Assembly (NCBI GenBank): GCA_034189135.1
Contig: JAXHVO010000026.1
Location: 64,900 to 128,899, forward strand
Reading direction: 5' to 3'
Origin: Thermodesulfobacteriota bacterium
GTDB taxonomy: Bacteria > Desulfobacterota > Desulfobacteria > Desulfobacterales > JAUWMJ01
DNA length: 64,000 bases
Below are positions 2,375-58,412 of this stretch, in pieces. The position numbers and the translations under genes are program-made. The first letter of the stretch is position 1, and each line of letters opens with the position of its first letter. The notes beneath the pieces are model-generated. The model was not told the DNA's origin, searched no databases, and saw nothing but the letters and a program-made list of their open reading frames with translations.

Positions 2375-2618
2375 AAAGAAAACCTCATATTATGATCATT
2401 TGACCATAATATAAATACTGTAAAACATTTTGTCAAGGACTATTATGGGCATAGGCTCAAATAAAATTGTTTGATATTTTGTCTGAAGAATCTATAGCGG
2501 TTGTTTGAGACTTGGGGGTGAATAAGCAGTTGTATTAATACTCAGTTAGTTGAGGGATTGGGGAATTTTTCATCAATGCCTTTTTTGTGAACCATTTGCG
2601 CTTTAATGATTGTTAGAG

Positions 2619-2857
2619 GCTCATCCGGGGAAGCGACCCTATGCCGGTACAAGCCTTAACCAATGAGTATAGCGCTTTGTACACGCCCCCTATCTTTTAC
2701 GTTAAACCGATACAGGCAGTGATGATCATTGCCGCCGTGAAAATCTGTTTGATGGGGCTGGTTCAAATCCTATCTCAGCGAGATAGCTGCCGTACGTCAG
2801 TTTCTCGGTAATATTGTTAAGGCTTGTACCGGCATAGGGTCGCTTCCCCGGATGAGC
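2619..2857. ncRNA. Unclassified hairpin-closed conserved element, copy A (candidate structured RNA or invertible/cruciform DNA element)
   Basis: 2619-2660 is the exact reverse complement of 2816-2857 (42/42). The 155-nt core has a 114-nt block (2681-2794) that aligns without gaps to 49329-49442. Confidence 0.55.
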
Positions 2858-2891
2858 TGAGTAGAGATGGAAAAACGGCCCGAACCCTCAG

Positions 2892-3848
2892 TTAGTTATG
2901 GGAAAAGGAGGGATCTTCCTGGATTTGATAAAAAAACCCTCGATTTTGTTTCACCACTTTGATTTTTTTGTCTGCCTCAAGTACATCAAGATATTTATTC
3001 ACCTCATTCATATGCATACCCAGCAATTCGGTGAGATCCTGCAAGGTACAGGGGCGTCTTGCAATGGTTTCCAGAATGGCTGATTCGGCGTCTTTTCGAT
3101 AGGAGAGAAGTTCTTTCCGTTTGGGTGGTTTGGCGATTATTTCGGCATAATCAAGGTGCCAGAAATCAATAATGCTTTTAAGCTCGTTGCTGGTGGCTGA
3201 GCGAATATTCTGGACGGTTCCCGGCCTGTCCAATGTATTGAGTTGCACCCGGTCCGGTTTTATTTTTTCTATCGCGTCTTTAAGTGCAGTTAATTCCTCC
3301 TTTGTATTATTAATGCTGGGGACGATGAAAATTTCCAGCCAGATTTGTCCGGAATATTCTTTTCTAAATTGGATCAAGCCCTCGATAACGGTATCGATAT
3401 TAAGCTTTGGATTGGGCCGAACGATTTTGGCAAAAGATATTTCACTAGCCGCGTCTAAAGAAGGTATGACCACGGTGGCATCTTTGATATCGTCACGGAC
3501 ATTTTTCTGGAAAAGGAGTGTGCCGTTGGTAAGCACAGCCACAGGAATATTAAAAGCCTGTGTTTTGATGAAACGAATCACATCCCCAATGGCCGAATTT
3601 AAGGTGGGCTCACCAGAACCTGAGAATGTGATATAGTCCGGCTTCGGATGGTGAGACAAAAAATGAGAAAGTTCTTTCTTGATCTCTTCGAAGGGCACAT
3701 ATTCTCTACGATTTAAAGTAAGGTGAGTGGTTCGTCCGCATTCACAGTAGATACAGTTTAAGGTACATGTTTTCATGGGAACCAGATCGAGTCCCAATGA
3801 TATTCCCAATCGTCTTGAAGGTACCGGACCGAATAGATGGTTGTACAT
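2892..3848 (-). CDS. Radical SAM protein with C-terminal winged-helix-like domain
   Basis: The N-terminus reads GPVPSRRLGISLGLDLVPMKTCTLNCIYCECG, which contains the CxxxCxxC cluster motif. 318 aa. Confidence 0.8.
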   Translation of the reverse strand: MYNHLFGPVPSRRLGISLGLDLVPMKTCTLNCIYCECGRTTHLTLNRREYVPFEEIKKELSHFLSHHPKPDYITFSGSGEPTLNSAIGDVIRFIKTQAFNIPVAVLTNGTLLFQKNVRDDIKDATVVIPSLDAASEISFAKIVRPNPKLNIDTVIEGLIQFRKEYSGQIWLEIFIVPSINNTKEELTALKDAIEKIKPDRVQLNTLDRPGTVQNIRSATSNELKSIIDFWHLDYAEIIAKPPKRKELLSYRKDAESAILETIARRPCTLQDLTELLGMHMNEVNKYLDVLEADKKIKVVKQNRGFFYQIQEDPSFSHN

Positions 3849-4307: not shown

Positions 4308-4343
4308 AATTATATCGTTATGGCCAGGCGACAAAGGAGAAAT

Positions 4344-4916
4344 ATGAATAAAGAAAACGATGAGATATTTAGTATTCCACAGGCGGCAAAACGCTGCGCC
4401 ATAAGCAGATGGACGCTGATGAAGTGCGTGACTTCCGGTGAACTGAAGGCATCGCGCACACCCGGCGGACATTACAGAATTCTAAAAGGAGATCTGGAAG
4501 ATTTTATTATTAAAAAGAAGATGTATCCTTTGGTACACAACCATTCTTCCCATAAAAAGATCCTAATTGTAGACGATGATCCCCAGATTCAGAAATTTCT
4601 TACCGTAATGCTTTCAGCTAAAAGATACGAAACAGAAACGGCATCCAGTGGTTTTGAAGCCGGGGCCAAGGTGGTAAAATTTAATCCAGGCCTGATTGTC
4701 CTTGATTTGTTTATGCCGGAGATGAGCGGGTTTGAGGTCTGCAGACAGATAAAGAAAGATCCGGAAACCTCACATATAAAAATACTGGCCCTAACTGGCC
4801 ATGACAGCAAACAAAACAGGGACCGCATAATAGAAGCCGGGGCAGATGGCTATATGGTAAAACCGGTGGAAAAAGCAGACCTGTTTCGGTATGTCGAAGA
4901 GCTTTTGAATTTTTAG
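4344..4916 (+). CDS. Response regulator with N-terminal excisionase/MerR-type HTH and C-terminal receiver domain
   Basis: IFSIPQAAKRCAISRWTLMKCVTSGELKASRTPGGHYRI forms the HTH. KILIVDDDPQ...DLFMPEMSGFE...KILALTG...GADGYMVKP forms the REC domain. Start chosen at ATG 4344 (AAGGAGA RBS); the track ORF from 4185 reads through the 9-bp array. Confidence 0.8.
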   Translation: MNKENDEIFSIPQAAKRCAISRWTLMKCVTSGELKASRTPGGHYRILKGDLEDFIIKKKMYPLVHNHSSHKKILIVDDDPQIQKFLTVMLSAKRYETETASSGFEAGAKVVKFNPGLIVLDLFMPEMSGFEVCRQIKKDPETSHIKILALTGHDSKQNRDRIIEAGADGYMVKPVEKADLFRYVEELLNF

Positions 4917-4957
4917 GACTCGCTTAAAGATATCTTCAAAAAGGAAAATAAATTTTA

Positions 4958-7252: not shown

Positions 7253-7321
7253 AGATTTTTGAAGCATCAAGAAAATCCCATAAACGATGAGTGAATTGGC
7301 AGGTTTAAAAAGGATACGGCC

Positions 7322-10237
7322 ATGACCCTTTTGCAAAAGAGGTGTAAAAAGAGACTATTTTGCTTCCTTTACCAACACTTTAAGAGAAGCATCTTATGCT
7401 TTATTTTATCTATCATTTTATTCTGGTTTGTTCCGTGGTCAGGGGCACAGAACCCAAATGAAATAATTTCAGTTCAGCTAACCGACCATGAGAGGAAATG
7501 GCTTTCCCAACACAGGACTATTAAGATTGCTCCCGACCCGTTTTTTCCTCCCATCGATTGGATAGATGATAAGGGCCACTACGGGGGAATTTCGGCTGAC
7601 TTTATACAGATTGTGAAAAAGAAAACCGGAATTAATTTTAAAGTGATCAAGTGCAAAAACTGGGATGAGGTCCTTGAAAAAGCCAAATCCAGAGAGGTGG
7701 ATGCCATTCCCGCGGCAGCGCAAACGCCGGAACGATCCAAATACCTCACCTTTTCCGAGCCCCATATCATACTACCGGGGGTAATCATAACCAGAACAAA
7801 AGTATCCGGCGATATTACACTTGAGGATCTCTCCACCATGAAAGTTTCCGTGGTCAAGGCCTATCTCTGGCAGGAGTTTTTGGAAAACGATTTTCCCACC
7901 ATGAAACTCGATTTAGTCAATGACTTGCAGGAAGGCCTGAGAAAAGTGGCCTTAGGTATATCGGACGCCCTGGTGGCAACCCTTCCGGTGGCACTTTATT
8001 ATATTGAAAAGGAAGGGATCACCAATCTTCGTGTCGCAGGTGAGACCGGCTATTATACCAGACTTTCCTTTGCCTCACGCAAGGACTGGCCGGAGCTCAA
8101 TGTGATAGTGAAGAAGGCGTTGGATCAAATCTCACCTAGCAGGAAGGAAGAAATTTTAGGTAAGTGGATCCATTTGGAGGAAAAATCGCTATTTAAGCAG
8201 AAAGAATTCTGGCTTACAATTCTGGTGATCGTCGGTGGTTGTGGCTTAATAGTTGTTGGCATTGCGCTGTGGAACAGATCCTTAAGAAGAAGGGTTGATC
8301 AAAGAACAGGGGAATTAAAAAAAGAATTGATTCAGCGCGTACAGGCAGAGGAGGCACTGCGGGAGAGTGAAGAGAAATATCGATTGCTAATAGAAAATCA
8401 AACGGATCTTATTGTCAAGGTTGATTCCGATGGAAGGTTCGAATTTGTAAGCCCATCTTACTGTGAGATGTTTAACAAGACAGAGGAAGAGTTGATCGGC
8501 CAGAGGTTCATGCCCCTCGTTCATAAGGATGATCAGCAAAACACGGAAAAAGCAATGGAAGCTCTTTATCAACCACCCTATACCGCCTATATGGAACAGC
8601 GTGCCGCCACAAAGGATGGATGGAAATGGCTGGCGTGGGTGGATACTGCCATGCTCGATGAAAACGAAAATGTGGTGAGTATCATTGGAGTTGGAAGGGA
8701 CATCAACAATAGGAAGCAGATTGAGGAGGCACTGCAGGAGAGTGAAGATAAATTCAGAACTTTTTTTAATTTATCTCCTCAGTGTATTGCCATTACAGAG
8801 GCGGATACAGGCAAGTTGGTGAATGTCAACGATATGTTTTGTGAGCTGACCCAATATCCGCGTGATGAAATTATTGGAAAAAGTACAATAGAAATAGGTT
8901 TATATTCTGTCAATGACAGAGACAGATTGATAAATGAGGTGTATAGGTCAGGGGAAAGCAGGGGATTGAAGATGGATTTTAAGACTAAGGACGGCTCCAT
9001 TCTCAATACGTTGATGTTTGCCAAATTGCTTCGGGTAAAAGAGGAAAAGTTTATTTTTACAATATTTGTTGACATAACCAGACAACAAAAACTCGAAGCG
9101 CAACTTCAGCAAGCCGAAAAGATGGAGTCCATCGGTACCCTAGCAGGTGGCATCGCCCACGATTTTAACAATATTCTTTTTCCCATGTTCGGTTATCTGG
9201 AAATGATGCTGGGAGACGTTCCCCAAGACAGCCCATTGCATGAAAGCCTTGAAAAGGTTTTTAACGGAGCGAAGCGTGCCAGGGACTTGGCCAAACAGAT
9301 ACTCACCTTCAGCCGGCAAAAGGATCATGAGATGAAACCCTTGAAGGTGCATCTGGTTATCAAAGAGGCCCTGCATCTGGTCGAGTCATTTTTACCGAGC
9401 ACAATTGAGATCAGTCAAAGCATAAAGACCGATTGCGGGCCGGTCATGGCCGATCCCACCCGGATTCATCAGATCGTCATGAACCTGTGTACCAATGCCT
9501 TCCATGCAATGGAAGATACCGGTGGAAAACTGACTATAAACCTGAAGGAAGTTGAGTTAGTCTCTAAGGACATCAAAGACCCGGCCATAACTCCGGGTCC
9601 ACATATTTGCCTGACGGTGGCCGACACCGGCCCGGGTATGGCGCAAAGCACCATAGGAAGGATATTCGATCCCTATTTTACCACCAAAAAAGAAGGGAAA
9701 GGCACCGGTTTGGGACTTTCGGTAGTTCATGGGATTGTTAAAAGCCATGGCGGTCAGATTAGCGTTGTCAGCGAGCCCGGTAAGGGGAGTGAGTTTCATG
9801 TTTATCTGCCGTTAATAAAACCCGGGAGAGAAGCAGCAAAGGGCGAAACCGATACACCCGTTCAAAAAGGGGATGAACGGATTCTACTGATCGATGACCA
9901 GGGCACCATTATTCAGATGGAAAAAAAGATGCTGGAACGACTGGGGTATCATGTGGTCCCATATACCAGTAGCGTGGATGCTTTAGAAGCATTCAAGAAA
10001 AATTCCCAACGGTATGATTTGGTCATTACCGACATGACCATGCCGAAAATGACTGGTGAGCAACTGGCAGAGGAGATAAGCAAAATTCGTGCGGATATAC
10101 CGGTGATTCTCTGTACCGGATTCAGCAAAATGATGTCTGAGGAAAAGGCGGAGTCTTTGGGGATAAAGGGATTCCTCATGAAACCGGTGGTGATGAAAGA
10201 CCTTTCCAATATGATTCGCCGCGTGTTGGATGAGTGA
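7322..10237 (+). CDS. Hybrid sensor histidine kinase, class 2: periplasmic SBP_bac_3-like domain - TM - 2 PAS - HisKA - HATPase - REC
   Basis: Solute-binding-like N-terminus (IKIAPDPFFPPIDWIDDKGHYGGISADF), then a TM segment and two PAS domains. H-box is MESIGTLAGGIAHDFNNILFPMFGY. Receiver has ILLIDDQ...DMTMPKMTG. Confidence 0.9.
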   Translation: MTLLQKRCKKRLFCFLYQHFKRSILCFILSIILFWFVPWSGAQNPNEIISVQLTDHERKWLSQHRTIKIAPDPFFPPIDWIDDKGHYGGISADFIQIVKKKTGINFKVIKCKNWDEVLEKAKSREVDAIPAAAQTPERSKYLTFSEPHIILPGVIITRTKVSGDITLEDLSTMKVSVVKAYLWQEFLENDFPTMKLDLVNDLQEGLRKVALGISDALVATLPVALYYIEKEGITNLRVAGETGYYTRLSFASRKDWPELNVIVKKALDQISPSRKEEILGKWIHLEEKSLFKQKEFWLTILVIVGGCGLIVVGIALWNRSLRRRVDQRTGELKKELIQRVQAEEALRESEEKYRLLIENQTDLIVKVDSDGRFEFVSPSYCEMFNKTEEELIGQRFMPLVHKDDQQNTEKAMEALYQPPYTAYMEQRAATKDGWKWLAWVDTAMLDENENVVSIIGVGRDINNRKQIEEALQESEDKFRTFFNLSPQCIAITEADTGKLVNVNDMFCELTQYPRDEIIGKSTIEIGLYSVNDRDRLINEVYRSGESRGLKMDFKTKDGSILNTLMFAKLLRVKEEKFIFTIFVDITRQQKLEAQLQQAEKMESIGTLAGGIAHDFNNILFPMFGYLEMMLGDVPQDSPLHESLEKVFNGAKRARDLAKQILTFSRQKDHEMKPLKVHLVIKEALHLVESFLPSTIEISQSIKTDCGPVMADPTRIHQIVMNLCTNAFHAMEDTGGKLTINLKEVELVSKDIKDPAITPGPHICLTVADTGPGMAQSTIGRIFDPYFTTKKEGKGTGLGLSVVHGIVKSHGGQISVVSEPGKGSEFHVYLPLIKPGREAAKGETDTPVQKGDERILLIDDQGTIIQMEKKMLERLGYHVVPYTSSVDALEAFKKNSQRYDLVITDMTMPKMTGEQLAEEISKIRADIPVILCTGFSKMMSEEKAESLGIKGFLMKPVVMKDLSNMIRRVLDE

Positions 10238-10433
10238 TTATTCAGCTGGATAGGTTGAAGGCCGAAGACTGTTAGGGAAAATCAATTTTTCAGCCATGTT
10301 TGGTACAGGAATTAAATTCCAGCAAAATTGGGCAATCGTATTCTTCTGCTCCCTTCAGCCTTCGGTCTAAACAGCTCCAGCCTGACGACGTGAGTAGTTG
10401 TGCAGGAACCTTAAAAAAGGAAAAATAGGTTTA

Positions 10434-12857
10434 ATGAAACCAATTGAGAAGAAATCGGGTTATTTTCAAAGATTTAAGGCGTTTGCGATAAGCAGGATGG
10501 CCCCAGGTGTTGTAGTAGAGAAAGACAGCCTCACCTACTGGCGGGTGTATATCCTGTTTGCTATTATTCTGACCGGGGTGATCATCGGTATTTTTGCCTT
10601 AGTGCCGGTAGCTGTGATGTTGATCAAGGAAAAAATGTGGGCCTTGTTGGCCTTTGATTGGTTTGTGTGGCTAATGGGTATGTATCTGTTGCTTTCAAAC
10701 CGTTTAAGATATGAAATTCGGGCAGCTATTGCTTTAATGCTGGTCTATGGCCTGGGATTGGTCATTATTATTAATGTGGGCCCTTTGAGCGGTGGCCCCG
10801 CCTGGCTGTTTGCCTTTGCGGTGTTGATGGGGATTCTTCTGGGAGCCAGAGCCGCCATGGCGGGCTTGGCCATCAATGCCATTACACTTACAATTTTATA
10901 CTGGCTGATTAGTGCGGGTTTCTTTGGCCAGACCTTTCCATTTTTTAATACCATGATAGCAATGATCGTTGCGGGTGCAAATTTTGTGCTTCTGAACGCG
11001 ATTGCCGCCATATCTGTAGCTGTACTGGTAAAAGGCCTGGCCTCCACCCACGATGCGGAAAAGTCTTTGAATCGCACTTTGAAAACAGAGCGTTTGTATT
11101 TAATGGAAGCAAAAAAAAAGCTGGAGCATGAGGTTGAAGAGCGTTTGCGTGTTGAGAATGTACTGCGGGAGAGTGAGGAGAAAGAAAAATTAAGAAATCG
11201 GATTGCCAACATTTTCCTCACTAAAACGGATGAACAAATGTACTGGGAAGTATTGACGATTGTTTTACATATAATGAAAAGCAAATTTGGCGTGTTTGGT
11301 TATATTAATCAACAGGGTGCATTGGTTTGTCCATCAATGACCAGAGACATCTGGGATCAATGTCAAATGACAGAAAAAGATATTGTCTTTCCCAGAGACA
11401 CTTGGGGAAACAGTATCTGGGGGAAAGGATTAAGAACGAAAAAATCAGCATACGCCAACAAACCGTTCAAAGTTCCCCAAGGACATATTCCGATTGACCG
11501 ATGTTTGACTGTACCCATCGTGTTTAAGGATAGATCAATAGGCGTGCTCACCGTTGCCAATAAAACAGAAGATTATGTTAAATCAGATAAAATCGTTCTT
11601 GAATCGGTCGCTGAATATATCGCTCCGGTATTGCATGCCATATTGGAAAGAAAACAGGCAGAAAAAGAGTTGCAGGAAAGCAATGAAAAGCTTGCCCGGT
11701 CAAAGAAGATGGAATCCCTGGGACTGATGGCAGGAGGGATCGCCCACGATTTGAATAATATTCTCTCTGGAATTGTAAGCTATCCTGATTTGCTTTTAAT
11801 GGATTTACCGGCAGACAGCCCGATTAGAGAACCTGTTGAGGTCATAAAAGAGTCCGGCGAGAGAGCTGCTGATGTGGTTTCGGATTTGTTAACAGTGGCC
11901 AGAGGGGTTGCTACCGGTAAAGAGGTTATCAACTTAAATGCCTTGGTGGAAGAATACCTGAATTCTGCTGAATACCAACAGATCAATAAAACACATCCAT
12001 CTGTGTATGTAGAAGCAAAGCTTGATGAGGATTTATTGAATATACACTGTTCTCCAACCCATATTAAAAAATCATTGATGAATTTGGTTGCCAACGCTTC
12101 CGAGTCTATTGAAGATGGGGGAACAATCACTATATCCACCATTAACAGGTATTTAGACGAGCCTTTAAAAGGATATGAGGATGTTCGTACCGGTGAATAT
12201 GCCATGCTGACCGTATCGGACGATGGCTCGGGTATATCTTCCCAAGATCTAGAGAGAATTTTTGAGCCATTCTATACCAAAAAAATAATGGGCAGGAGCG
12301 GCACCGGTTTAGGTTTGGCCGTGGTATGGAATACAGTACAGGATTGCGATGGATATATAAATATAAGGAGCAATGAGAACGGCACGGTATTTGAACTATA
12401 TTTTCCGGTAACCAGAGATGAATCTAGACTGGTTAAACAGGATATACCCTTTGAGGATTATGTCGGCCATGGAGAAAAAATTCTTGTGGTTGATGATGAG
12501 GAGAATCAAAGAGAAATCGCATCAAGATTATTGATCAAGCTGGGTTATACTACGGAAGCGGTGCTAAGTGGAGAAAAAGCGGTTGAATATTTAAAAGAGA
12601 ATTCCGTGGACTTGATCGTGCTGGACATGATTATGCCGAATGGAATGAACGGACATGAGACATACCGGGAAATAATCAAAATTCATCCTGGTCAAAAGGC
12701 GATTATAGCCAGCGGGTTTGCCGAAACGGAGGACGTAAAGGCCGCCCAGAAATTGGGGGCGGGAAAATACATCAAAAAACCCTATACCATAGAAAAAATT
12801 GGACTGGCGGTAAAAGAAGAATTGGAAGCCGGCAGTCGTTTACGGTCTGAAACTTGA
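10434..12857 (+). CDS. Hybrid sensor histidine kinase, class 1 paralog: same membrane domain - GAF-like - HisKA - HATPase - REC
   Basis: The N-terminal 240 aa and the transmitter and receiver are collinear with 4958-7252 (MKPIEKKSGYFQRF vs MKPLETKPGYFQKF). The middle segment is GAF-like (FGVFGYINQQGALV...SIGVLTVANK) rather than PAS. ATG 10434 chosen by homology. Confidence 0.9.
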   Translation: MKPIEKKSGYFQRFKAFAISRMAPGVVVEKDSLTYWRVYILFAIILTGVIIGIFALVPVAVMLIKEKMWALLAFDWFVWLMGMYLLLSNRLRYEIRAAIALMLVYGLGLVIIINVGPLSGGPAWLFAFAVLMGILLGARAAMAGLAINAITLTILYWLISAGFFGQTFPFFNTMIAMIVAGANFVLLNAIAAISVAVLVKGLASTHDAEKSLNRTLKTERLYLMEAKKKLEHEVEERLRVENVLRESEEKEKLRNRIANIFLTKTDEQMYWEVLTIVLHIMKSKFGVFGYINQQGALVCPSMTRDIWDQCQMTEKDIVFPRDTWGNSIWGKGLRTKKSAYANKPFKVPQGHIPIDRCLTVPIVFKDRSIGVLTVANKTEDYVKSDKIVLESVAEYIAPVLHAILERKQAEKELQESNEKLARSKKMESLGLMAGGIAHDLNNILSGIVSYPDLLLMDLPADSPIREPVEVIKESGERAADVVSDLLTVARGVATGKEVINLNALVEEYLNSAEYQQINKTHPSVYVEAKLDEDLLNIHCSPTHIKKSLMNLVANASESIEDGGTITISTINRYLDEPLKGYEDVRTGEYAMLTVSDDGSGISSQDLERIFEPFYTKKIMGRSGTGLGLAVVWNTVQDCDGYINIRSNENGTVFELYFPVTRDESRLVKQDIPFEDYVGHGEKILVVDDEENQREIASRLLIKLGYTTEAVLSGEKAVEYLKENSVDLIVLDMIMPNGMNGHETYREIIKIHPGQKAIIASGFAETEDVKAAQKLGAGKYIKKPYTIEKIGLAVKEELEAGSRLRSET

Positions 12858-12896
12858 GATTAGAAAGGAGAAATTCGAGAAAAAGGGAGGTTATTC

Positions 12897-13868
12897 ATGA
12901 AATTCCCCAGATTAAATAATTTTCCATTCTTGCTGACAGCAGTTTTTGCACTTACTGTCTTTATCTCAACCTATTCTCACGGAGAGAGTGAAAAAAAACA
13001 TAGGTTTACCATAGGCTTTGCTGCAATGAATGTGGAGATGACATGGATGAAGTTTGCCTACTATGCCATACGTAAAAAGGCTGCCGAGTTGGGTGTAGAT
13101 TTGATTACCTATGATGCGGGGAATAATGTGGCCAAACAGGCTATTAATATCGAGAATTTAGTCAAAAGAGGCGTGGATGCGATCATTACGGATCCCGTAA
13201 ATGTAAAAGGGTTGATTCCGACACTTGAGTTTGCCTCTGGAAAAAAAATCCCCGTAGTGGCCTTTGACCGCTCTGCAACTGGAGCACCGTACCTTTTCTT
13301 TGTAGGTTCAGATGATGTAGAGGCAGGCCGCCTTGCATGCCGGTTCCTTGCAGACAGGCTGAAAGGTGTTGGCGATATCATCGTTTTGGAAGGAGCTGTC
13401 GGCTCTTCACCTGCAATCAATCGTTCAAAGGGCTTTTATGATGAAATTAAAAAATACCCTTCCATGAAGGTCGTGTTCAACAAGAGCGGTGGGTTTTTTC
13501 ATGATGAGGGTTATTGGGTTATGGAAGAGGCTCTGGCTACGGTTGCTGGTTTCAACGCAGTGTATTCGCAGAATGACGATATGCTATTGGGAGCCATAGA
13601 GGCAATGGAAAACGCAGGTATACCTCCTAAAAAGATATTAACCATTGGGACTGATGCCATTCCGAAGGCGTTGATAGCCATACGTGAAGGCCGATTGGAT
13701 GCGACCATCCAATACCCCATCAGCCAGGTAGAGATCGCATTGGAGAGGCTCGTTCACTACTTGAAAACCGGCAATCTCCCGGAATGGAAAGAGCATCTGG
13801 TGAAGCCTTGGGTCATTACAAGTGAGAATATATCTACCGGTGATTTTTATTCATCTATTGAGGATTAA
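12897..13868 (+). CDS. Periplasmic binding protein, type I sugar-binding family (RbsB-like), probable kinase co-sensor
   Basis: Signal peptide, then FTIGFAAMN...GVDAIITDPVN...IPVVAFDR...VGSDDVEAGR...NDDMLLGAIEA. GGGAGG RBS. Confidence 0.8.
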   Translation: MKFPRLNNFPFLLTAVFALTVFISTYSHGESEKKHRFTIGFAAMNVEMTWMKFAYYAIRKKAAELGVDLITYDAGNNVAKQAINIENLVKRGVDAIITDPVNVKGLIPTLEFASGKKIPVVAFDRSATGAPYLFFVGSDDVEAGRLACRFLADRLKGVGDIIVLEGAVGSSPAINRSKGFYDEIKKYPSMKVVFNKSGGFFHDEGYWVMEEALATVAGFNAVYSQNDDMLLGAIEAMENAGIPPKKILTIGTDAIPKALIAIREGRLDATIQYPISQVEIALERLVHYLKTGNLPEWKEHLVKPWVITSENISTGDFYSSIED

Positions 13869-13906
13869 ACTCCTGGTAACCATCAGGGAAGTATTCGGGT
13901 GCAATT

Positions 13907-16900
13907 ATGTTTAAGAAAAATTACATGCTGTTTTTGGGGGGTGTACTCATATTTTTCGGTTTTTGCCTAGGTATTTTGAGCGTTACGTTCAACTACGTAA
14001 AATTAAACCGGGAAGCCGCTGTGGGCGAATTTGAAGAGCAGGTGAAAGCCGGTGCGAAACAGCTTCAATTTTACTCTGAATCCTTACGTTCCGATCTTCT
14101 CAGGATTGAAAAATATCTGTCCAACAGCGACATGAAGGTGAGCAGAGAGCTCTATGGTTACCTGGATTTTGTATTGGGCCATCACCCAAATGCCATTGCT
14201 GAAATTTTGATTTTGGATGTCAATGGAAAGGGTGTTGCCGGAACAAACCCGGTATCAGTGAAATCAAGTTTTCACGAATCCAAATATTTTATAAAAACGC
14301 AGCACCGGCCAAATAGAGTCTATTTTTCAGAGGCAATTATTGCAGGGGATTTATCCAGACTCTCTGAAGTCGGCACTAATGGTTTCATGGATCCCCTGGA
14401 TTTGGGATTTGTGCTTTACTCAGGCGTTTATTCAAGAGGAGTATTTAAAGGAGCTGTTTTGTTTATCGTCAGGGCGGAACCGTTTTTCAAACGATACTCG
14501 GAGGCACTTACTAAACTTACCTCGGGATATGGATTTATATTACAGGAAGATGGCCGCATTCTGTTTCATCGTGATGTTGAACTTCGTGGTAAATTTATTT
14601 CGGATTTGCCCGAATCTTCCGATTTATCAAACGATTTACTGAAAAAAAATGAAGGAAAGATTTCAGGGTATGGTTTGACCGGACAGCATATGAATATTAT
14701 TTCTGAAGTATTTCTTCAGAACCGAAAATGGATTTTAGGTGTTTCAACCAATACATCAAAGCTGGCTCAAAAAACCCTAATCACCCTTTACACCCTCAGC
14801 GGTATCTTGCTGCTTCTCGGTATTATTGTATTCGGGCTTGTATTTTCTTTGATCCGTCTGGGTAAGGCCAAAGAAAGGCTGAGCGCCGGTGAAAAGCGGC
14901 TTTCTTTGATTCTTAAGCAGGTCGGTGCTGTCCTGTGGACCACAGATACCGATCTTCGCTTTACCTCATCACATGGCAGTGGGCTTGCAGTATTAAAGCT
15001 CAAGCCCGGGCAAGTCACAGGGCAAACGCTTTACCAATACTTCCAGACCGACGACCCGATGTTTCTACCCATTGCATCTCACCTCTGCGCCCTCGACGGT
15101 GAATCGGTAAACTATGAGCAAACCTGGGGTGGCATAACCTTTCAAACACACGTTGAACCGCTCCGAGACACGGAAGGAAATATCTCAGGCTTAATCGGGG
15201 TTTCGCTGGAAATTACCGAGCGCAAGCGGATGGAGATGGCATTGAAGGCGAGCGAGGAGAAGTATCGCAGCCTGGTGGAAACCATTACCGATCTTGTTTT
15301 CATCATCGATCCGGATGGAAGGTTTACCTATCTTAACCCTGAATTTGAAAAAGTGACCGGCTTTGTCGTCGTAGACTACATTGGGCGTTCTTTTACTGAA
15401 ATTCTTGTCCCTGAATATATTGAACCGACGGTTGACCGATTTAAACGCGGGCTTTCCGGCGAGGTCATTCCCATTTATGAGGTAGAGATTAAACATAAGG
15501 ATGGAAAGACGGTCCCGGTGGAATTAAAGGTGGCATCACTCCTGGATGATGATGGTCATGCCATGGGCAGAATCGGTGTAGCCCGTGACATTTCTAAACG
15601 CAAGCAGAACGAAGAAGCGCTGCGGGAAAGCGAGGAGCGAATTAAGGCGATCCTTAAAGCTTCTCCAGTGGGGATCGGTTTGGTTATCAACCGCACAATG
15701 GACTGGGCGAACGAGACCATGTACCGCATGGTCGGCTATAAATCAGGCTCACTTTTGGGAAAAAGCGCCAGAATTTTCTACCCGGACGATGAAGAGTTTC
15801 ATCGGGTAGGCCGAGAGCTTTACGCCGGCATTGAGGAATCAGGCAATGCCCAGGTAGAAACAAAATGGGTGCGAAAGGATGGATCGGTTTTTGATTGTAT
15901 CCTTCGGTTGAGCGCCCTTGACCCATCCGACCCTGCCAAGGGCCAAATCGTAGCATTAACCGATGTTTCTGAACTTAAACGTGCCCATGAAGAAATGAGA
16001 AAAAGTGAAGCGGAAAAAAAGGCGATACTGGACGGCATCACCACCAGCATCAGATTCGTTAATACAAACCTGGAAATACTATGGGCAAACAAGGCTGCCG
16101 CTGATTCGGTTAGTAAATCTCCCCAAGAAATGGTGACGCATAAATGCTATAGTTTTTGGGGGGATGGCTCGAAAAGGCACTGTGAAAGTTGCCCGGTAGT
16201 GAAAACCTTCAAAACAAAAAAGACAGAACATGTCATCCAACATACTTCGGATAAGAAAATGTTCGATCTAAAAGCTGAGCCGGTTTTTGACATTAATGGA
16301 AACTTGATCGGTGTTATTGAAATTGCCCATGATATTACTGACAAGTACCGGCTTGAAGACCAGCTTCAACAGGCTCAGAGGATGGAATCCATCGGCACCC
16401 TAGCCGGGGGGATCGCTCATGATTTTAATAACATTCTTTTTCCCATATTCGGCTATCTGGAGATGCTGCTGGCAGACATTCCGCAAGACGACCGGTTCCA
16501 CGGCTACCTTGTGGAGGTTTTTAACGGTGCCAAACGGGCACGGGATTTGATTAAACAGATCCTGGCGTTCAGCCGCCAATCGGATCACGAGCGTAAACCT
16601 ATAGAAATTCAGCGCATAATCAAAGAAGCCTTGAAGCTGCTCAAGTCTTCATTGCCGAGCACCATTAAGATCAGGCGAAATATAAAAAGCGATTGCGGGC
16701 TGGTGATGGCGGATCCGACTCAGGTTCACCAGGTTGTCATGAACCTGTGCACCAATGCCTTTCATGCCATGGAGGGAACCGGCGGGAAACTGTCAATATC
16801 CTTAAAGGAAGTCTGGTTGGAGACCGAAGACTTAAAAGACCCGGCCATGATTCCGGGGGAATATGTCTGCCTGACTGTGGCAGACAACGGCCCGGGGATG

Positions 16901-17497
16901 GAACAGAGCATAGTCAACCGAATATTTGATCCCTATTTTACCACCAAGAAAGAAGGCAAGGGAACGGGTTTGGGCCTTGCCGTGGTTCATGGGATTGTTA
17001 AAAGTCATAACGGACATATTGATGTTAACAGCAAGCCTGGTGAGGGAGCACTATTTCATGTTTATCTACCTTCAATAAAAACCGAGGAGGTAAGTCAGAA
17101 AGAGGAAACCGATATACCCGTTCAAAAAGGGAATGAGCGAATTCTACTGATTGATGACCAGGATATGATTGTTCAGATGGAAATGCAAATGCTTGAGCGG
17201 TTGGGGTATCATGTGACAACTCGTACCAGCAGCACTGATGCCTTGGAGGCATTCAGGGCCAACCCCCAGGTGTTTGATCTGGTCATTACCGATTTGACCA
17301 TGCCGAATATGACCGGAGATAAACTGGCAGGTGAGTTGATAAAAATTCGACCTGAAATTCCGATTATTCTGTGCACCGGATTCAGCGAAATGATGTCCAA
17401 AGAAAAAGCGGAGTCTATAGGGATAAAGGGATTTCTGATGAAACCGGTGGTGATGAAAGATCTTTCCCATGTCATTCGTCAAGCACTGGATAAGTAG
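13907..17497 (+). CDS. Hybrid sensor histidine kinase, class 2 paralog: Cache-like periplasmic domain - TM - 4 PAS - HisKA - HATPase - REC
   Basis: The C-terminal roughly 400 aa are highly similar to 7322-10237 ([25 protein letters not shown] ... [13 protein letters not shown]). The N-terminus has TM - about 270-aa extracytoplasmic domain - TM. Confidence 0.9.
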   Translation: [1196 protein letters not shown]

Positions 17498-49172: not shown

Positions 49173-49267
49173 GATTTCTAAGCACGTTTATCTTTATATA
49201 CGGTTTTTGTTCGTTTAAACGGAATATATTTATTAAAAACAAACATACGTTTTTCCATTTTAGCTCG

Positions 49268-49506
49268 GTTCGATCGGGGCATCACCTATGGGCCTGTTCC
49301 CATACTTAACAAATAATATCAGTATCTTACACGCCCCCTATCTTCTCAGTTAAACCCATACAGGCAGAGACGATCAACGCCACCGTGGGATTCTGTCCCC
49401 TGGGGCTGGCTCAAAATTAATTGAAGCGAGATAGCTGCCGTATGTTCATTTCCAGATAGGATTGTTAAGTATGGGAACAGGCCCATAGGCGATGCCCCGG
49501 TCGAAC
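49268..49506. ncRNA. Unclassified hairpin-closed conserved element, copy B
   Basis: 49268-49310 pairs with 49464-49506 at 41 of 43 positions. The 153-nt core contains the same ACACGCCCCCTATCTT ... GTTAAACC ... ATACAGGCAG ... TGGGGCTGG ... AGCGAGATAGCTGCCGTA blocks as copy A. Confidence 0.55.
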
Positions 49507-49560
49507 TGAAAAGAGATTGAACCCCCCCCGACCCTTTAGATAATTATTCACAGTATAAGG

Positions 49561-51713: not shown

Positions 51714-54702
51714 CTAACCTTGATTCGATCTTTTCGCTTGGTCCAGAGTATTTCGAACTTTTTGGGAGAATTCGGAGATGTTGAACGGCTTTTGAATGAA
51801 TCCGTTGCATCCTTTTTTCAAAATTTCATTCGCTTGTCCGTTGATCGCATAGCCACTGGAAAGTATCACCGGTAATTGTGGTTGGATATCTTTAATACGG
51901 TCAAACACCTTTCCGCCATCCATTCCGGGCATGATGAGATCAAGAATGACAAGCTCGATTTCATCGCCTTTCAGCTGGATTGTATCTAATGCTTGCTCGC
52001 CACCATGTGCGACCAGGACACGGTAACCCAGTCTTTTCAGCATTCCCTTCCCCACATCCAGAATCATTTTTTCATCGTCGACCAGAAGAATGGTTTCCGA
52101 TCCCTTGACAATCTTTTCTTCCACAGCCGGTTCTTGATAAGCTTGCTTTTTTGTTATCGGTATATAGATGTTGAACGTTGTTCCGTGTCCCACTTCGCTA
52201 TAGACCGTAATGATGCCATCGTGATTCTTGATGATTCCATATGCCGAAGCCAGTCCCAGGCCTGTTCCACGGCTCTTTTCTTTCGTTGTAAAGAAAGGGT
52301 CAAAAATCCGCTTTCGTACGGCTTCGTCCATGCCGACCCCGGTGTCCGTGACCGAAATCTTGGCAAAGCGGCCCGGTGTTGCCTGATATGGCAGGCAGTA
52401 GTCTTCGTCCAGGCTGGTGGTTTTGGTTTCCAGATAGAGTTTGCCGCCTTCCGGCATGGCCTGCCATGAGTTGACATATAAGTTCAACAGGACTTGCTCG
52501 ATTTGATTTCGGTCTACTGCTGCCACCAATGGTGTGTTTTGCAATTTGATGTGGATTTGAATTTCTTTTTTTGTACGCCCGAACATTTTTCCGCTGTGTT
52601 TTACCAATATATTGATATCGGTGGGTTTGACCTCATACTTCCCGCCACGGGCAAATCCTAAAAGCTGTCTGGTCAGGTCCGTCGCACTTCGGATGTAGGC
52701 ATCAATGGCCTGGATATGCTCAAAATGAGAAGGGGTGGTTTCAATATCTGTCGATATGAGCGAGGCCCGGCCCTGGATGCCCATTAATAGATTATTAAAA
52801 TCATGAGCAATTCCACCTGCAAGCGTTCCGATTGCCTCGAATTTCTGGGTCTGTTGAAGCTGTTGTTCCATCTTTTTAAGATTGGTAATGTCTGTTGCTA
52901 TTTGAAGCCTGACCAAACGTCCGTCTGTCCATTCTATGGCACTCGTAGTTGATGTACCATTTCTTATTGACCGGGTTTTCACCTTGCCAGATACAAACGC
53001 CGGTGGGTTTTCCGTTTTTGTCAATGAGTTGATCATTGCTACATATCGAACAGGGTTCGGATTCTCCTCGGAAAACAGCAAAACATTTTTTGCCGGTCAT
53101 ATTCTTGCCAAAGCTTTTTATCATGTTTTTATTCATAAAGAGAATGTCGTATGTTTCCATGTCAGCCACATAAATGGTGGCGTCGATGCTGTCCAAAACA
53201 GTGAGAAATCTATTATGGGAAGCCCGCAGCGCTTCTTCCGCCTGTTTGCGGTCGGTGATGTCCCGAGCCACGGACAGGATCACTTTTTGTTCATTGAGAT
53301 CAATTATGCTTGAGCTGATTTCAACAGGGAAGCTTTTGCCCCACCTGTTAATATGTTCGGCCTCAAAAATCATAAAGCCGTTTTCCAATAGTTTTTTCCG
53401 AGCTTGGCTTCTTCCATGTTTCTGAACATCTTTTTGTACGCTAATGTCACCGGGTGTTAATTCAAGAAATTCTTCTTTACTATAACCGTAGCGCTGACAG
53501 GCGATGTCGTTAACTTCGATAATCTTTTCAAAGCCCTTATTTGCATAAAGATGCACAAAAACCGCATCATTAATCGAATTAAAAAATACTCTGAACTTTT
53601 CTTCGCTTTCCTGCAGTGCTGCGGCCATTCGGCTGCTTTCTGCCAGTTTTTCCTCCATTGCCAGGGTTTTGACTTTCACCTGCTCACGAAGGCTTCGATT
53701 CCAGGCTGAAACAACAGTAATGGCGAAAAGGGCCGAAACCGCAACTGCCGCCAGTGCGAGAAGCAAAATTTTCCACTGCCGGCTGAATCCGCTCTCCTGA
53801 AAAGAGGCTACAAGTGCCTCGTCAGCGTGCCATTTTTGCTGCCAGGCCTGCCATTCTGTTTGATCAATGAGGGAAAGTGCTTTGTCCAAGATAGCGGCCA
53901 GTTCTGGCCAGTCTTTTCGCACACCGATGCTCTCCAGAGCACTGCTCCGGTCGTAAACGGCGGCAAATTTCAAGTTTGATATTCCATATTTGGTTTTCAG
54001 GTGGCTGGCGGCCCCAAAAAATATGATGGCAGCATCGGCATTGCCGGTGGCCACGGCATTGAGGCCATCCAGCATGGTGTCGACGTAATAGGGTTTGAGT
54101 GTGGGGAAATCTTTAAAGATGTCCTGTACGTAATGATAATCGCGTACCAGAGCCACCTGTTTGCCGGCAATGTCTTCGCGTTTACCGATGGATTTATCAT
54201 CAGCCCGGGTCATGATGGCCAGGGATTTGTATATGTACGGGCGGGTGAAAGTAAACCACTCCATACGCTCAGATTTCTGAACCATGGTGGCCACCACATC
54301 CACCTCTTTTTTCTTGGCGGCTTCGAAAAGATCTTTCCACACGAAAGACGGGTGGATATCGAAACGAATGCCGATCCGATCGGCCAGGGCTCTCAGGACA
54401 TCCACGGACAATCCTTCCACATGGCCTTCATCCGTTAAATAACTGTATGGGGGAAAATAACCGTCGAAAGCTACCCGGATAGTGGGATGTGTCGACAGCC
54501 AGGTACGCTGTGCGGGAGTCAATATAAGGGCATTTTTTTCCCCATGGGCTGCGCCTGTTGTAACTGGAAAAACATTGGGCGGGTGGCTGTTGCTTCCGGT
54601 CTTGAGAGGTGTTTCAGCGGCATGAATCACTACGCTGCCAAGCACACAGATCATGACGATAAAGGATAACCCGTAACAGGAGAAACCAGCTTTTTTTTTC
54701 AT
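51714..54702 (-). pseudogene. Class 2 hybrid histidine kinase (SBP_bac_3 - TM - PAS x2 - HisKA - HATPase - REC) split by a 1-nt frameshift
   Basis: The ORFs 52876-54702 and 51714-53081 overlap in different frames. The PAS domain reads ...NKKWYINYE in one frame and continues AIEWTDGRLVRLQIATDIT in the next, around 52930-52950. Confidence 0.75.
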
Positions 54703-54834
54703 GAAGCAACTCTACTATTTGAAAGAAATTTGATTTGTTAGTCAGTCAATCATGTTTTTATACAAGAGAACATCAGGATCTTCGTGTTCAACATCCGGAT
54801 TAATAGACCTGAAGCGATTCGTTTGTACCTGAAA

Positions 54835-57201
54835 TTATTTTCTTAATTCTTCTTTTACGACAACCCCTATTTTTTCCAGAGTGTAGGGTTTTTTTATGTA
54901 TTTGCCCGCACCCAATCTTTGAGCTTCTTTAACCCGATCCGTTTCCGAATATCCGCTGGCAATGATCGCCTTTTGGTTGGGGTGAAGTTTTATAACTCTT
55001 TGATACGTTTCCAGGCCATCAATTCCCGGTTTCATGATCATGTCTAAAATCAATAGGTCCACAGAATTATTTTTCAGGTATTCAACGGCATCTTCACCGC
55101 TTGAAACCGTGGTGACAGTATAATTCAATTTAGTTAAGATATTTGCCGCAATATTCCTTTGTTGTTTAACGTCGTCAATAACCAATATTGTCTCTTTCCT
55201 GCCCATATATTCTTCAACAGGGGTAAAGTCTTTTTTCCTAATATTCTTTTTACGGGTTGCCGGAAAATATAGTGAGAATGTCGTTCCCACTCCTTCAGTA
55301 CTTTTTACGTCAATATACCCATGATGGTCATGGATTGTCCCCCAAACCACAGCCATTCCGAGTCCGGTGCCACTCTTACCCATGGCTTTTTTAGTGTAAA
55401 AAGGCTCAAATATCCTGGTTAGGTCTTCAGGCGCGATGCCCAATCCGTTGTCCTTTACCGCTAAAACAACGTAATCTCCTTCTTCCATTTCTTCATGTTT
55501 TATTATCGGTGCGTCAATATATTGGTTATATGTTGAAATGACGGTTTTTCCGCCCGCAGGTTGGGCTTCCGCAGCATTGGATACCAGATTCATTATCATT
55601 TTTATCAGCGGGGTCGAAGATCCTTCAATATTCAACAAGTTTGCATCAAGGTCGGTGTCTACAGAGACATTTGAATGATATTTTTTTAACTTTATATATT
55701 CCGGTGATTTTAAATACTCTGAGATGATATCATTTAAGTTTAAAACGTTTTTATTTTCTACCCCTCTTCTTGCAAGGGTTAAAAGATCCTGAACGATTTC
55801 AGCCGCTTTTTGACCCGAGTTTTTGATTGTCAGGATCGGTTCTCTTAAAGGGCTGTCTTTTTCAAGATCCATGAGTAATAGATCCGGATAAGAAATAATT
55901 CCGGACAAAATATTGTTAAGATCATGGGCCACTCCTCCGGCAAGCAGGCCGATGGCTTCCATTTTTTTCGATTGTTGAAGCCGGGTCTCAAGTCTCAGCT
56001 TGTCTTTTTCTTTTGTTAAAAATTCAAATTCTACCGCCACCATCCGACAGACGGTTTTAATTAAGTTCAAATCCCATTCGTCAAAATCTCTTTTTTTGCC
56101 GAACACGTTTATGGTGCCGGTCACCGCTCCCTCTCGATCGAAAATGGGTATCCCGACATAACTCTCCGCTTCTAACACTGATAAACTTTGTGCCAAGGGA
56201 AAATGTTTATACGCATCCGAGGTAATGATAATCGGCTTCTTTTCGGTGACGATCTGCAAACTGGGCAGACCGTTTATGGGATCAAAAGGATTATTATCGT
56301 TTAAGCCTATCGGTGAAAAGGCGACCTTGTGGAAACTGTTTTCCGACTGCTGGACTTTTATAATCAGCGTATGGGTGCCCAATAATTCCGATAAGGCATC
56401 GGCCACCCGATTGAAGAGGTCCTCCCCGCGATTGGTGATTGCGATGTTGTAAAAATATTCAACCCATTTGTTTCTTTCCTCAAGCGAAAGCATCATTTTG
56501 CAGATGTTATCGCTTAAAAATTCAAGTTCATAGATCCCTTTATATTGCGGTGATTGCCCCATTCGTATGGCGCTGATAATCCGGTTAAGCGGTTTTCTGA
56601 GAAAGCGATTCTGAAACAACAGGATCAATATCAGACCCAACAACAGCAGAATACCGGTAATAATATATGTCGTCTTAACCTGTGCAATAAGGGGTGTATA
56701 AGCCTGGGTATCTTTTATCAGGTCTATATCCCATTTCCAGGGTTTAAAGGTAATATGCTCAAAGTAATAGATTTTTTCCTTGAAATGAACGGTTGAAAAG
56801 GATTCTTTTGGATGATGCTTGGCAATAAATTTGATCAAATCCGTTTCGATTTGGTGCTGAAGCAATTCACCTTTATTAAACTCGAACAGTCGGCACCCGA
56901 TGTTGTTTCTTTGGGTATAATCCTCAATCGCTCCCAAAGTGACCGCCTTTTTAATGATGACCGCCTTTCGGTTGTCCATTTTTCCGGTTTGCATCAACTC
57001 GGTAAAATTTTTATCACAGATATCATATATCTCACTGGCAATATCGGCCAACCCCTCTTTTATCTGTGCGTCGGCAAATTCCGAAACAGACCGCAGGACG
57101 AAAAAATATAGTCCCATGCCTACCAGGCCAATGGTCATTACCACCGGGATGACCATCCGAATAGGCAAGCTTTTAAAAATCTGTTTGATAGATGTTGGCA
57201 T
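54835..57201 (-). CDS. Class 1 hybrid histidine kinase: TM - extracytoplasmic domain - TM - HAMP-like - GAF - HisKA - HATPase - REC
   Basis: The H-box is MEAIGLLAGGVAHDLNNILSGI. The transmitter and receiver are collinear with 4958-7252 and 10434-12857. ATG 57201 overlaps the upstream stop (TAATG). Confidence 0.85.
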   Translation of the reverse strand: MPTSIKQIFKSLPIRMVIPVVMTIGLVGMGLYFFVLRSVSEFADAQIKEGLADIASEIYDICDKNFTELMQTGKMDNRKAVIIKKAVTLGAIEDYTQRNNIGCRLFEFNKGELLQHQIETDLIKFIAKHHPKESFSTVHFKEKIYYFEHITFKPWKWDIDLIKDTQAYTPLIAQVKTTYIITGILLLLGLILILLFQNRFLRKPLNRIISAIRMGQSPQYKGIYELEFLSDNICKMMLSLEERNKWVEYFYNIAITNRGEDLFNRVADALSELLGTHTLIIKVQQSENSFHKVAFSPIGLNDNNPFDPINGLPSLQIVTEKKPIIITSDAYKHFPLAQSLSVLEAESYVGIPIFDREGAVTGTINVFGKKRDFDEWDLNLIKTVCRMVAVEFEFLTKEKDKLRLETRLQQSKKMEAIGLLAGGVAHDLNNILSGIISYPDLLLMDLEKDSPLREPILTIKNSGQKAAEIVQDLLTLARRGVENKNVLNLNDIISEYLKSPEYIKLKKYHSNVSVDTDLDANLLNIEGSSTPLIKMIMNLVSNAAEAQPAGGKTVISTYNQYIDAPIIKHEEMEEGDYVVLAVKDNGLGIAPEDLTRIFEPFYTKKAMGKSGTGLGMAVVWGTIHDHHGYIDVKSTEGVGTTFSLYFPATRKKNIRKKDFTPVEEYMGRKETILVIDDVKQQRNIAANILTKLNYTVTTVSSGEDAVEYLKNNSVDLLILDMIMKPGIDGLETYQRVIKLHPNQKAIIASGYSETDRVKEAQRLGAGKYIKKPYTLEKIGVVVKEELRK

Positions 57202-58412
57202 TAGAATATGGGTTCCGCTGTTTTTATTTGATCGGGCCACACCACCTGCTTTTGTCCATTCTGCCATTGTATAATAAAAGTGTGCTGTCTTACCTGCTTT
57301 CCGTTTTTATCGACACCAAACCGGCCAATAATGGTCATGGTATCCAGATGAAACAATGCGTCACGAACCTTATCCTTATTGATGCTTCGCGCTTCGTTCA
57401 CTGCTTTTTCCAAGACCTGGCCCCCCGCGTAGGCCAGACCTGCATGATAACCCGGAGTTTCTCCATAGGTTTCAATGAACTGCTGATTGAATTTTTGTGC
57501 ACCTGGATAGTTGGCTCTGGGTTCCCATAGCGATGTTCCAAAAACAGATTCGGCGTCTGCCCCGCATCGGTCGAAAAAACCCTGAAGGGCGGGTCCCACC
57601 GAGGCGTAAAAGGCTTTCGGTCGCCATCCAATCCTTTTCAAAGCTTTTGATATGTTGACCGCTTCATTCATATGGCCGGATACCATCAGTACTTGCGAAT
57701 TGTTTTCTTTAGCTTTTAACACCAAGGGTTCCAGATTTAGCGTTCCCTTTTTGAATTTTTCATAATCAACAATATCCAAGCCGAATCGCCGGGCCCATTT
57801 TTTTGCGCTTTCGGCCAAATCAACGGAAAACGGATCGTCGGCATAGAGCAATGTAATTCTATCCAGCTCGTTTAAAACAAGCAGTTCTAAGAATCCGAGG
57901 GTAAATTTGCTGGCGGGTGTATAGACGCCGATGGTATTGCGATAACCTTTTTCCCACAGCCTATCGGCCGCTGCTCCTGCAATTAAGATGGGCATATCAT
58001 TTTCTTCCGCAACGGGTAAAACAGCTTCTGTAATAAGGCTGGAGTACGGGGCAAACAGAAAGTCGACATGCTCCTTTTGTATCAGTTCTCGATATATGGT
58101 GATGGCACGCTCGGGGTCGCTTTGATCATCTTTAACGATCACCCGTACAGGCCTTCCCAATATACCTTTTTGGTGGTTCACATTCTGTTCCCACAGTCTA
58201 AACCCTTTATTCAGAGCATCTGACATGACGGCAAACCGGCCGGTAAGTCCAAGACTGACGCCGATTTTTATCGGCTTTTCCGCCATGCATGGGGATGGGA
58301 AAAAAATCATCGCAATAATGAAAACCAGGGCAACCCGTTTCCATCGGACTGTCGACTTCAATACTGTCGAATGAAAAAAACCGAACCAAATGCTAAATAA
58401 AGGCATAACCAT
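57201..58412 (-). CDS. Periplasmic binding protein, LivK-like family, probable kinase co-sensor
   Basis: IKIGVSLGLTGRFAVMSDALNKGFRLW...DDQSDPERA...FAPYSS. Translationally coupled to the downstream kinase. Confidence 0.75.
   Translation of the reverse strand: MVMPLFSIWFGFFHSTVLKSTVRWKRVALVFIIAMIFFPSPCMAEKPIKIGVSLGLTGRFAVMSDALNKGFRLWEQNVNHQKGILGRPVRVIVKDDQSDPERAITIYRELIQKEHVDFLFAPYSSLITEAVLPVAEENDMPILIAGAAADRLWEKGYRNTIGVYTPASKFTLGFLELLVLNELDRITLLYADDPFSVDLAESAKKWARRFGLDIVDYEKFKKGTLNLEPLVLKAKENNSQVLMVSGHMNEAVNISKALKRIGWRPKAFYASVGPALQGFFDRCGADAESVFGTSLWEPRANYPGAQKFNQQFIETYGETPGYHAGLAYAGGQVLEKAVNEARSINKDKVRDALFHLDTMTIIGRFGVDKNGKQVRQHTFIIQWQNGQKQVVWPDQIKTAEPIF

Follow-up and report, generated by a model that had tools for sequence, protein, structure and literature searches.

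The Correia MITEs of Neisseria (CREE/NEMIS) combine an inverted repeat with a conserved core and are described as binding RNase III (PMC2649163). As reported for CREE, the hairpin in the transcript is bound or cut by RNase III and the ends of the element can create promoters (PMC2649163; PMC10969869); the elements can also invert (PMC10969869, citing Elbeyioglu 2017). The Desulfobacterales repeat described in this study shares with CREE/NEMIS the build of a small non-coding MITE, in which inverted repeats enclose a conserved core, and the presence of many intergenic copies. The core inversion reported for CREE resembles the in situ inversion of the middle of the Desulfobacterales repeat at orthologous loci, and the ends of CREE that make promoters resemble the right end of one of our copies (copy B), where an outward promoter-like site was found. 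CREE have 26-bp Neisseria-type TIRs and a TA target duplication, whereas the repeat studied here has an 8-bp duplication and differs in TIR sequence and host phylum, so that it stands outside the CREE family proper. It is also longer (~338 bp, compared with ~100–155 bp in that different phylum), and it has two tiers of repeats, namely outer TIRs of conserved sequence and longer inner arms in which complementarity alone is conserved. The resemblance to CREE, which were compared by description, is functional and architectural only.

Three other groups share part of this organization. The IS-derived MITEs Chunjie of Geobacter, MITEAba12, RUP and ERIC, as described in PMC10969869, have the same attributes of TIRs, target-site duplications (TSDs), small size, lack of a transposase and dispersed intergenic copies, and internal deletions have given rise to variants of other sizes, as the same source describes for them and as was found for the Desulfobacterales repeat. 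A long perfect internal inverted repeat with a flipping spacer and mosaic or hybrid ends are non-standard for these MITEs, and no parent IS was found among the loci fetched here. Invertons are likewise short segments between inverted repeats that occur in both orientations at one locus; in the repeat studied here, however, neither a recombinase partner nor a sigma-70-like promoter in the segment was found, there is no bias toward positions upstream of genes, the arms are ~44 bp long and differ between copies, and the element is itself transposable. The short inverted repeats of yeast and the palindromes of primate sex chromosomes are described as having arms that are near-identical within a copy and diverge between copies or species, with an inverted spacer (PMC8604942; PMC8327919), although they are not transposable elements and belong to another scale and other organisms.

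Literature searches on the TIR sequence and on MITEs in Desulfobacter returned nothing relevant. Our best reading is that the repeat represents a new MITE family of Desulfobacterales, and its distinctive trait is a pair of ~44-bp inner arms that evolve in concert and flip the ~150-bp middle enclosed by them.

Structure of the two copies in the window

The window, that is, the whole stretch of 64,000 nucleotides that was analysed, is ordinary chromosome of a Desulfobacterales-like bacterium, with genes for pyk, a DUF4147/MOFRL glycerate kinase, DUF134, DUF5320, hybrid histidine kinases, ilv/leu, topA, secDF and leuS. Hybrid sensor histidine kinases (with MASE11, PAS, GAF, SBP_bac_3 and receiver domains) are unusually dense at 4185-17497 and 51714-58412, and each of them adjoins periplasmic binding proteins. 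The ORFs at 51714-53081 and 52876-54702 share an overlap of ~200 nt, and taken together they resemble a single sensor kinase that is either split or mis-started.

A sequence-only reading of the window had noticed two copies, A and B, of a hairpin-closed element, with arms of 43 nt in copy B. These arms are real and slightly longer than described (48 nt, 94% complementary). The core blocks that were said to be shared are identical in both copies, the two longest of them have no other occurrence within the window, and copy A is a true homolog of copy B, so that the element is a repeated one. The two copies can be aligned from end to end, and their arms differ between the copies yet stay complementary within each. 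The coordinates given by that reading hold for the inner module, but they had left out the outer ends of a larger repeat unit, which covers 2552-2889 in copy A and ~49210-49537 in copy B. The parts of the two copies are as follows.

2544..2551, + strand: copy A, left TSD AGTTAGTT
2552..2571, + strand: copy A, left outer TIR GAGGGATTGGGGAATTTTTC
2572..2618, + strand: copy A, one-sided spacer X, conserved among copies, which sets the orientation of the outer frame
2619..2660, + strand: copy A, left inner arm (repeat search; 42 nt, 100% complementary)
2661..2815, + strand: copy A, invertible middle, consisting of linkers and conserved core (alignments)
2816..2857, + strand: copy A, right inner arm (repeat search)
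2858..2889, + strand: copy A, Y spacer (2858-2869) and right outer TIR (2870-2889)
2890..2897, + strand: copy A, right TSD AGTTAGTT
49210..49264, + strand: copy B, left outer end of the subfamily-2 type TTCGTTTAAACGGAATATATTTATTAAAAACAAACATACGTTTTTCCATTTTAGC, its flanks aligned to L042, L086, L094, L110 and L043; outer boundary uncertain by ~20 nt
49265..49312, + strand: copy B, left inner arm (repeat search; 48 nt, 94% complementary to 49462-49509)
49313..49461, + strand: copy B, invertible middle, consisting of linkers and conserved core (aligned with copy A and 95 family members)
49462..49509, + strand: copy B, right inner arm (repeat search; partner of 49265-49312)
49510..49537, + strand: copy B, right Y spacer and degenerate subfamily-1 outer TIR AAAGAGATTGAACCCCCCCCGACCCTTT

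The octamer AGTTAGTT flanks copy A perfectly on both sides (2544-2551 and 2890-2897). The right end of copy B is directly followed by a target-like octamer, AGATAATT (49538-49545), with no matching copy on the left. The left outer end of copy B contains the reverse complement of a Y-like spacer adjoining the arm, and it has neither the subfamily-1 TIR nor the X spacer. The core of copy B is in the '+' orientation, as is that of copy A.

Copy B occupies nearly all of the 388-bp spacer between pyk and the glycerate kinase gene and ends ~40 nt from the start codon of the latter. From this position, transcription of the glycerate kinase gene would be expected either to start within the element or to read through its 48-bp duplex. 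A weak outward promoter-like site (49517-49544, + strand, TTGAAC-16-GATAAT, 9/12), formed by the right end of copy B together with the adjacent AT-rich target, runs antisense into the 3' end of pyk.

Copy number and mobility of the family

The canonical unit of the family is ~338 bp long and consists of an outer TIR, the 47-nt X spacer, an inner arm, the middle, the second inner arm, the 12-nt Y spacer and an outer TIR. The TIR at both ends is GAGGGGTCGGGGAGTTTTTC (mean pairwise identity 0.81), the inner arms are ~44 bp and the middle is ~150 bp long, and X stands on one side only. Across the aligned copies, conservation continues beyond the inner arms, and the modal length was 338-339 bp for the 49 copies with both outer TIRs. 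A flanking direct repeat of 8 bp with at most one mismatch was present in 36 of these 49 copies and was perfect in 21, whereas control pairs of octamers always had at least 4 mismatches. The duplicated target approximates A-W-T-T-A-R-T-T.

Scanning species-representative genomes by sequence pattern gave 8 true copies and 5 chance matches. All 8 copies are in Desulfobacterales or 'Deltaproteobacteria' MAGs, including a symbiont of the worm Olavius, and 5 of them lie on 4 contigs of one MAG, CSMAG_1936. The metagenome scan gave 106 loci, nearly all of them true copies, and among the 80 metagenome loci listed, most came from distinct contigs of a single assembly, CAJHXW01. All of the ~111 copies are intergenic, and the orientations of their neighbouring genes are mixed, 83 gene flanks having the element on the 5' side and 88 on the 3' side of the gene. 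Therefore, the position between two co-directional minus-strand genes that had been noted for copies A and B holds for both window copies and does not extend to the family as a rule. A conserved gene neighbourhood or orientation was considered as a family property and rejected, since the flanks are mixed.

One contig of CAJHXW01 (L047, 482-3491) is 80% identical over 3 kb to window 4197-7221, which holds a response regulator and a MASE11 kinase, and it also carries the repeat, nearby but at another position; this identity makes the high-copy assembly a fairly close relative of the window's organism. Every short-read Logan contig from SRR24907504 and SRR24907505 (L120-L124) that carries the window's pyk, glycerate kinase or DUF134 gene ends inside or at the edge of the repeat. 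As these contigs stop inside the core on both sides, as is expected for a repeat, the element fragments assemblies of this organism.

Conserved outer TIRs, 8-bp TSDs and dozens of dispersed intergenic copies, which are hallmarks of a transposable MITE, show by these sequence features that the element is mobile DNA. It is also under ~500 bp, has no transposase gene of its own and is present in many dispersed copies, two of them in this window. No transposase or recombinase was found in the window when 41 of its 47 ORFs of at least 90 aa were scanned against Pfam. No autonomous IS partner with the same TIRs was found among ~1 Mb of fetched loci, neither by a scan for orphan TIRs followed by a Pfam search of the adjacent ORFs, which gave no transposase, nor by an all-vs-all BLAST of the fetched loci for multi-copy segments. 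The plasmid and phage collections held no similarity to the repeat. As these searches returned no partner, we infer the mechanism of transposition from the TIRs and TSDs only. The outer TIR is conserved in sequence between copies and is presumably the transposase-binding site, and transposition would rely on a putative DDE-type transposase supplied in trans.

In situ inversion of the middle

The orientation of the core relative to X was nearly balanced (25 vs 21 copies; 28 vs 20 among copies with both TIRs), and both orientations also occur in subfamily 2. Direct evidence of inversion was obtained from L022/L050 and L059, which are orthologous loci with flanks 93-96% identical. These loci are colinear through the flanks, the AAATATTT TSD, the TIRs, X, both arms and Y, while the ~150-bp middle is reverse-complemented; they therefore record an in-place inversion and not independent insertions. 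One arm carries a mismatch (TTGTAAAG vs TTGTTAAG) close to its inner end, and this mismatch moved along with the middle, which places the exchange points inside the arms.

The orthologs also differ at two other places in the arms, and each of these differences has its mirror image on the other arm (T..A vs G..C, and A..T vs G..C). As only ~0.05 mirrored changes were estimated by chance in 44 pairs at ~5% flank divergence, these changes are well above the chance estimate, and the arms therefore change in concert in situ. These data show that the middle flips in situ and that the arms change in concert in situ, the inversion being one between related populations, at one orthologous locus. Within the populations of the source samples, the contigs of SRR24907504 and SRR24907505 show only the window's orientation at the window copies.

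A segment that lies between inverted repeats and is seen in either orientation at the same locus, as in L022/L050 and L059, has the form of an inverton. The repeat could thus be a programmed inverton carried on a MITE, with a dedicated site-specific recombinase that would recognise conserved motifs in the arms (e.g., CGGGGAAT and CTTAACAA) and flip the middle as a phase-variation switch, and with transposition having scattered this switch next to many genes. The in situ inversion itself, the near-balance of the two states in each of two subfamilies and the conservation of the middle and of some arm segments agree with such a switch. However, no recombinase gene was found in the window or beside the copies examined, no sigma-70-like promoter signal was found in the middle, and the copies are not enriched upstream of genes. 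Additionally, the arms, at ~44 bp, are much longer than typical recombinase sites and vary more, the crossover took place at some point within the arms, which is what homology-driven exchange predicts, and the contigs of the source samples show a single orientation. Taken as a whole, the programmed switch and its scattering by transposition are therefore judged unlikely.

Concerted change of the inner arms

The complementarity of the two arms had a median of 0.96 within a copy, compared with 0.73 between the left arm of one copy and the right arm of another, which confirms the earlier suggestion that the long arms co-evolve to stay complementary. The arms covary very extensively, and double transversions are frequent among the changes; one pair, for instance, is C-G in 39, T-A in 32 and A-T in 14 copies. 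An RNA helix selected on one strand is expected to have many G·U mismatches but few of the A·C and transversion types. Among the arm mismatches, GT/TG occurred 77 times and AC/CA 59 times (binomial p = 0.14), and the 104 transversion-type mismatches were as common as the transition-type ones. The arms thus covary without a bias of G·U over A·C, which differs from the covariation of a structured ncRNA, where G·U is tolerated and A·C is not.

On both strands, the fold of the hairpin is far more stable than that of shuffled controls (z = -9.7 to -13), a result that any long inverted repeat would be expected to give. The view that the 'compensatory' changes reflect selection on a folded RNA is unsupported, given the two orientations of the middle, the TIRs and TSDs, the missing G·U bias and the missing conserved fold. 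Arm complementarity would equally be maintained by selection for a hairpin in single-stranded DNA or in RNA transcribed from one strand or the other.

DNA-level homogenisation of the arms, coupled to inversion of the spacer, best explains the 'compensatory' arm changes without invoking RNA. Template switching between the arms of inverted repeats is described as homogenising the arms and inverting the spacer (PMC8604942). By analogy, we infer the mechanism of arm homogenisation and inversion in the present family: repeated DNA-level exchange between the arms would maintain near-perfect complementarity despite ~25% divergence between copies, the likely routes being template switching during replication or intramolecular recombination with gene conversion. 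The same exchange events would invert the spacer and would thereby have brought its two orientations to roughly 50:50. On balance, we consider it probable that the repeat is a MITE family whose inner arms evolve in concert via arm-to-arm DNA exchange, which also flips the spacer.

A read-through transcript of the element would carry a perfect duplex of 42-48 bp, which RNase III could cut, as in Correia elements. An RNase III-dependent or regulatory effect of the Correia kind is therefore possible by analogy, and it would be a side-effect of the arm pattern and not its cause.

Conservation and signals of the middle

The mean pairwise identity was highest in the outer TIRs (0.81), followed by the middle (0.78, excluding the positions forced by the search pattern), the arms (0.74-0.75) and the two linkers (0.64-0.68). 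The middle is only modestly more conserved than the rest of the element, and this conservation points to some constraint on the middle that lies outside the explanation offered by the arm-exchange model.

Essentially no conserved core structure was found on either strand, as RNAalifold on the middle (~170 nt) of 95 distinct copies gave -8.6 kcal/mol (plus) and -4.2 kcal/mol (minus) with a covariance term near 0. The sequence-only reading had taken a 3-bp internal hairpin, GGA..TCC in copy B and AAA..TTT in copy A, as covarying. Across the 95 copies, the second of its three pairs was counted 63 times as G-C, 24 times as A·C and 3 times as A-T, and the hairpin is broken in 24 of 95; the two sides thus vary independently, which that reading had itself named as evidence against its proposal. 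The complementary blocks it had called invariant (CTATCT/AGATAG, GGCAG/CTGCC and GCCCC/GGGGC) do not vary appreciably, but with no compensatory change among them they carry no information on folding or on a pseudoknot. GCCCC/GGGGC, CTATCTT/GAGATAG and GGCAG/CTGCC are essentially invariant, and in the few cases where they vary the pairing is lost. This invariance is partly an effect of ascertainment, as two of the blocks were obligatory in the search pattern.

The middle is non-coding, as had been proposed: across 95 copies there is no conserved ORF, no 3-periodicity in the variation and no frame open throughout. Rfam gave no match in the whole window at the gathering threshold and only chance-level matches in both copies at E up to 10 (a miRNA hairpin, SAM_alpha and snoRNAs).

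Two specific structures were tried and rejected. A tRNA-like T-loop in copy A (GGTTCAAATCC) has no complementary stem, most copies read GGCTCAAATC at this place, and ARAGORN finds nothing. For an HDV-like double pseudoknot (GCCCC..CTATCT..GGGGC..GCTG/CAGC..AGATAG), the helices are either invariant or broken where they vary, and no Rfam ribozyme matches; the GCTGG/TCAGC stem is mismatched at one pair in ~40% of copies.

No sigma-70-like promoter or terminator was found in the middle of copy A or copy B. A near-consensus sigma-70-type promoter (TTGACA-17-TATATT, 11/12) stands at 2436-2408 on the minus strand, between copy A and the DUF134 gene; since it lies outside copy A, the DUF134 operon need not take its promoter from the element. 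An outward hybrid promoter, formed by a -35 TTGAAA in the Y/TIR end and the AT-rich target, was dismissed as a family property because only 18 of 104 ends qualify.

In the structured-ncRNA explanation, the arms would be a selected RNA helix and the middle a pseudoknotted RNA, and RNase III would release the RNA or regulate downstream genes. The high predicted stability of the hairpin (z about -10 to -13), the strong covariation of the arms, the invariant complementary blocks, the slightly higher conservation of the middle relative to the linkers and the description of Correia MITE hairpins as RNase III substrates (PMC2649163) are in its favour. It is weakened by wobble-type mismatches without strand bias alongside many transversion mismatches, by a middle without a conserved nested fold on either strand and by the independently varying sides of the proposed internal hairpin. 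Moreover, the middle is found either way round with respect to any promoter outside the element, neither a sigma-70-like promoter nor a terminator was found inside it, Rfam gave no match, the flanking contexts are mixed, and the TIRs and TSDs show that the copies spread by transposition. A structured ncRNA is thus an improbable basis for the arm pattern.

Hybrid copies and deletion derivatives

Copy B combines a subfamily-2 left end (…GGAATATATTCATTAGAAACAAACAG…TTTTTCAATCTTAGC) with a subfamily-1 right end and has neither the X spacer nor a TSD; the lack of a TSD fits a hybrid (recombinant) copy. From this composition of its ends, copy B appears to have arisen by recombination between two elements. 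L087, likewise a hybrid, joins a subfamily-1 end to the subfamily-2 X2 end. Hybrids of this kind suggest that separate copies recombine and that the family may mediate rearrangements of the chromosome. The outer arm of subfamily 2 has a small hairpin of its own on the right flank of the inner module (TTTCATGC…GCCCAGTCGGGC…GCATGAAA; L021, L042, L075, L080, L081, L086, L094 and L109), and the two subfamily-2 ends share the motif GAAAC(AA)ACAGT as a direct, not an inverted, repeat.

Short derivatives of approximately 127 bp and 75 bp keep the outer TIRs and the flanking octamer repeats and have neither the hairpin nor the middle:

L042, 1833-1959: short derivative
L109, 11887-12012: short derivative
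L092, ~10777-10851: short derivative

They retain part of the right arm and are therefore deletion derivatives, not empty sites. The ~127-bp derivative is present in two different assemblies and may still be mobile.

That the inner module is a second MITE, with the 44-bp arms as its TIRs, inserted either way into an older small palindromic element would agree with its occurrence within at least two kinds of outer ends and in hybrids and with the existence of short outer-only elements, but it is very improbable, because those short forms keep part of the right arm, the junctions of the module with X and Y are identical in all copies, the orthologous pair was inverted in place with colinear arms, the TIRs of a MITE would be conserved between copies and not merely complementary within each, and the module never stands outside a Y-bearing frame among the copies examined.

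Conclusions

It is also conceivable, though we consider it doubtful, that the inner module is a portable phase-variation cassette, in which a genome-encoded recombinase or a controlled host pathway would flip the conserved ~150-bp middle, whose activity would be strand-specific. If this were true, that activity might be, for example, that of a promoter of unconventional type or of a small RNA that is processed out of the 44-bp stem, and MITE transposition would have wired the switch beside dozens of genes, giving a genome-wide, heritable and reversible regulatory network in Desulfobacterales.

For the preferred reading of a MITE family with arm-to-arm DNA exchange, the main lesson is that long inverted repeats in mobile DNA can mimic RNA covariation through such exchange, and this calls for caution in covariation-based RNA discovery. 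The two-tier repeat is a natural system in which to measure how fast inverted repeats drive inversion and gene conversion in bacteria. This high-copy MITE family of the sulfate-reducing Desulfobacterales, including symbionts of gutless worms, breaks genome assemblies, can seed rearrangements, as the hybrid copies indicate, and may alter the expression of neighbouring genes.
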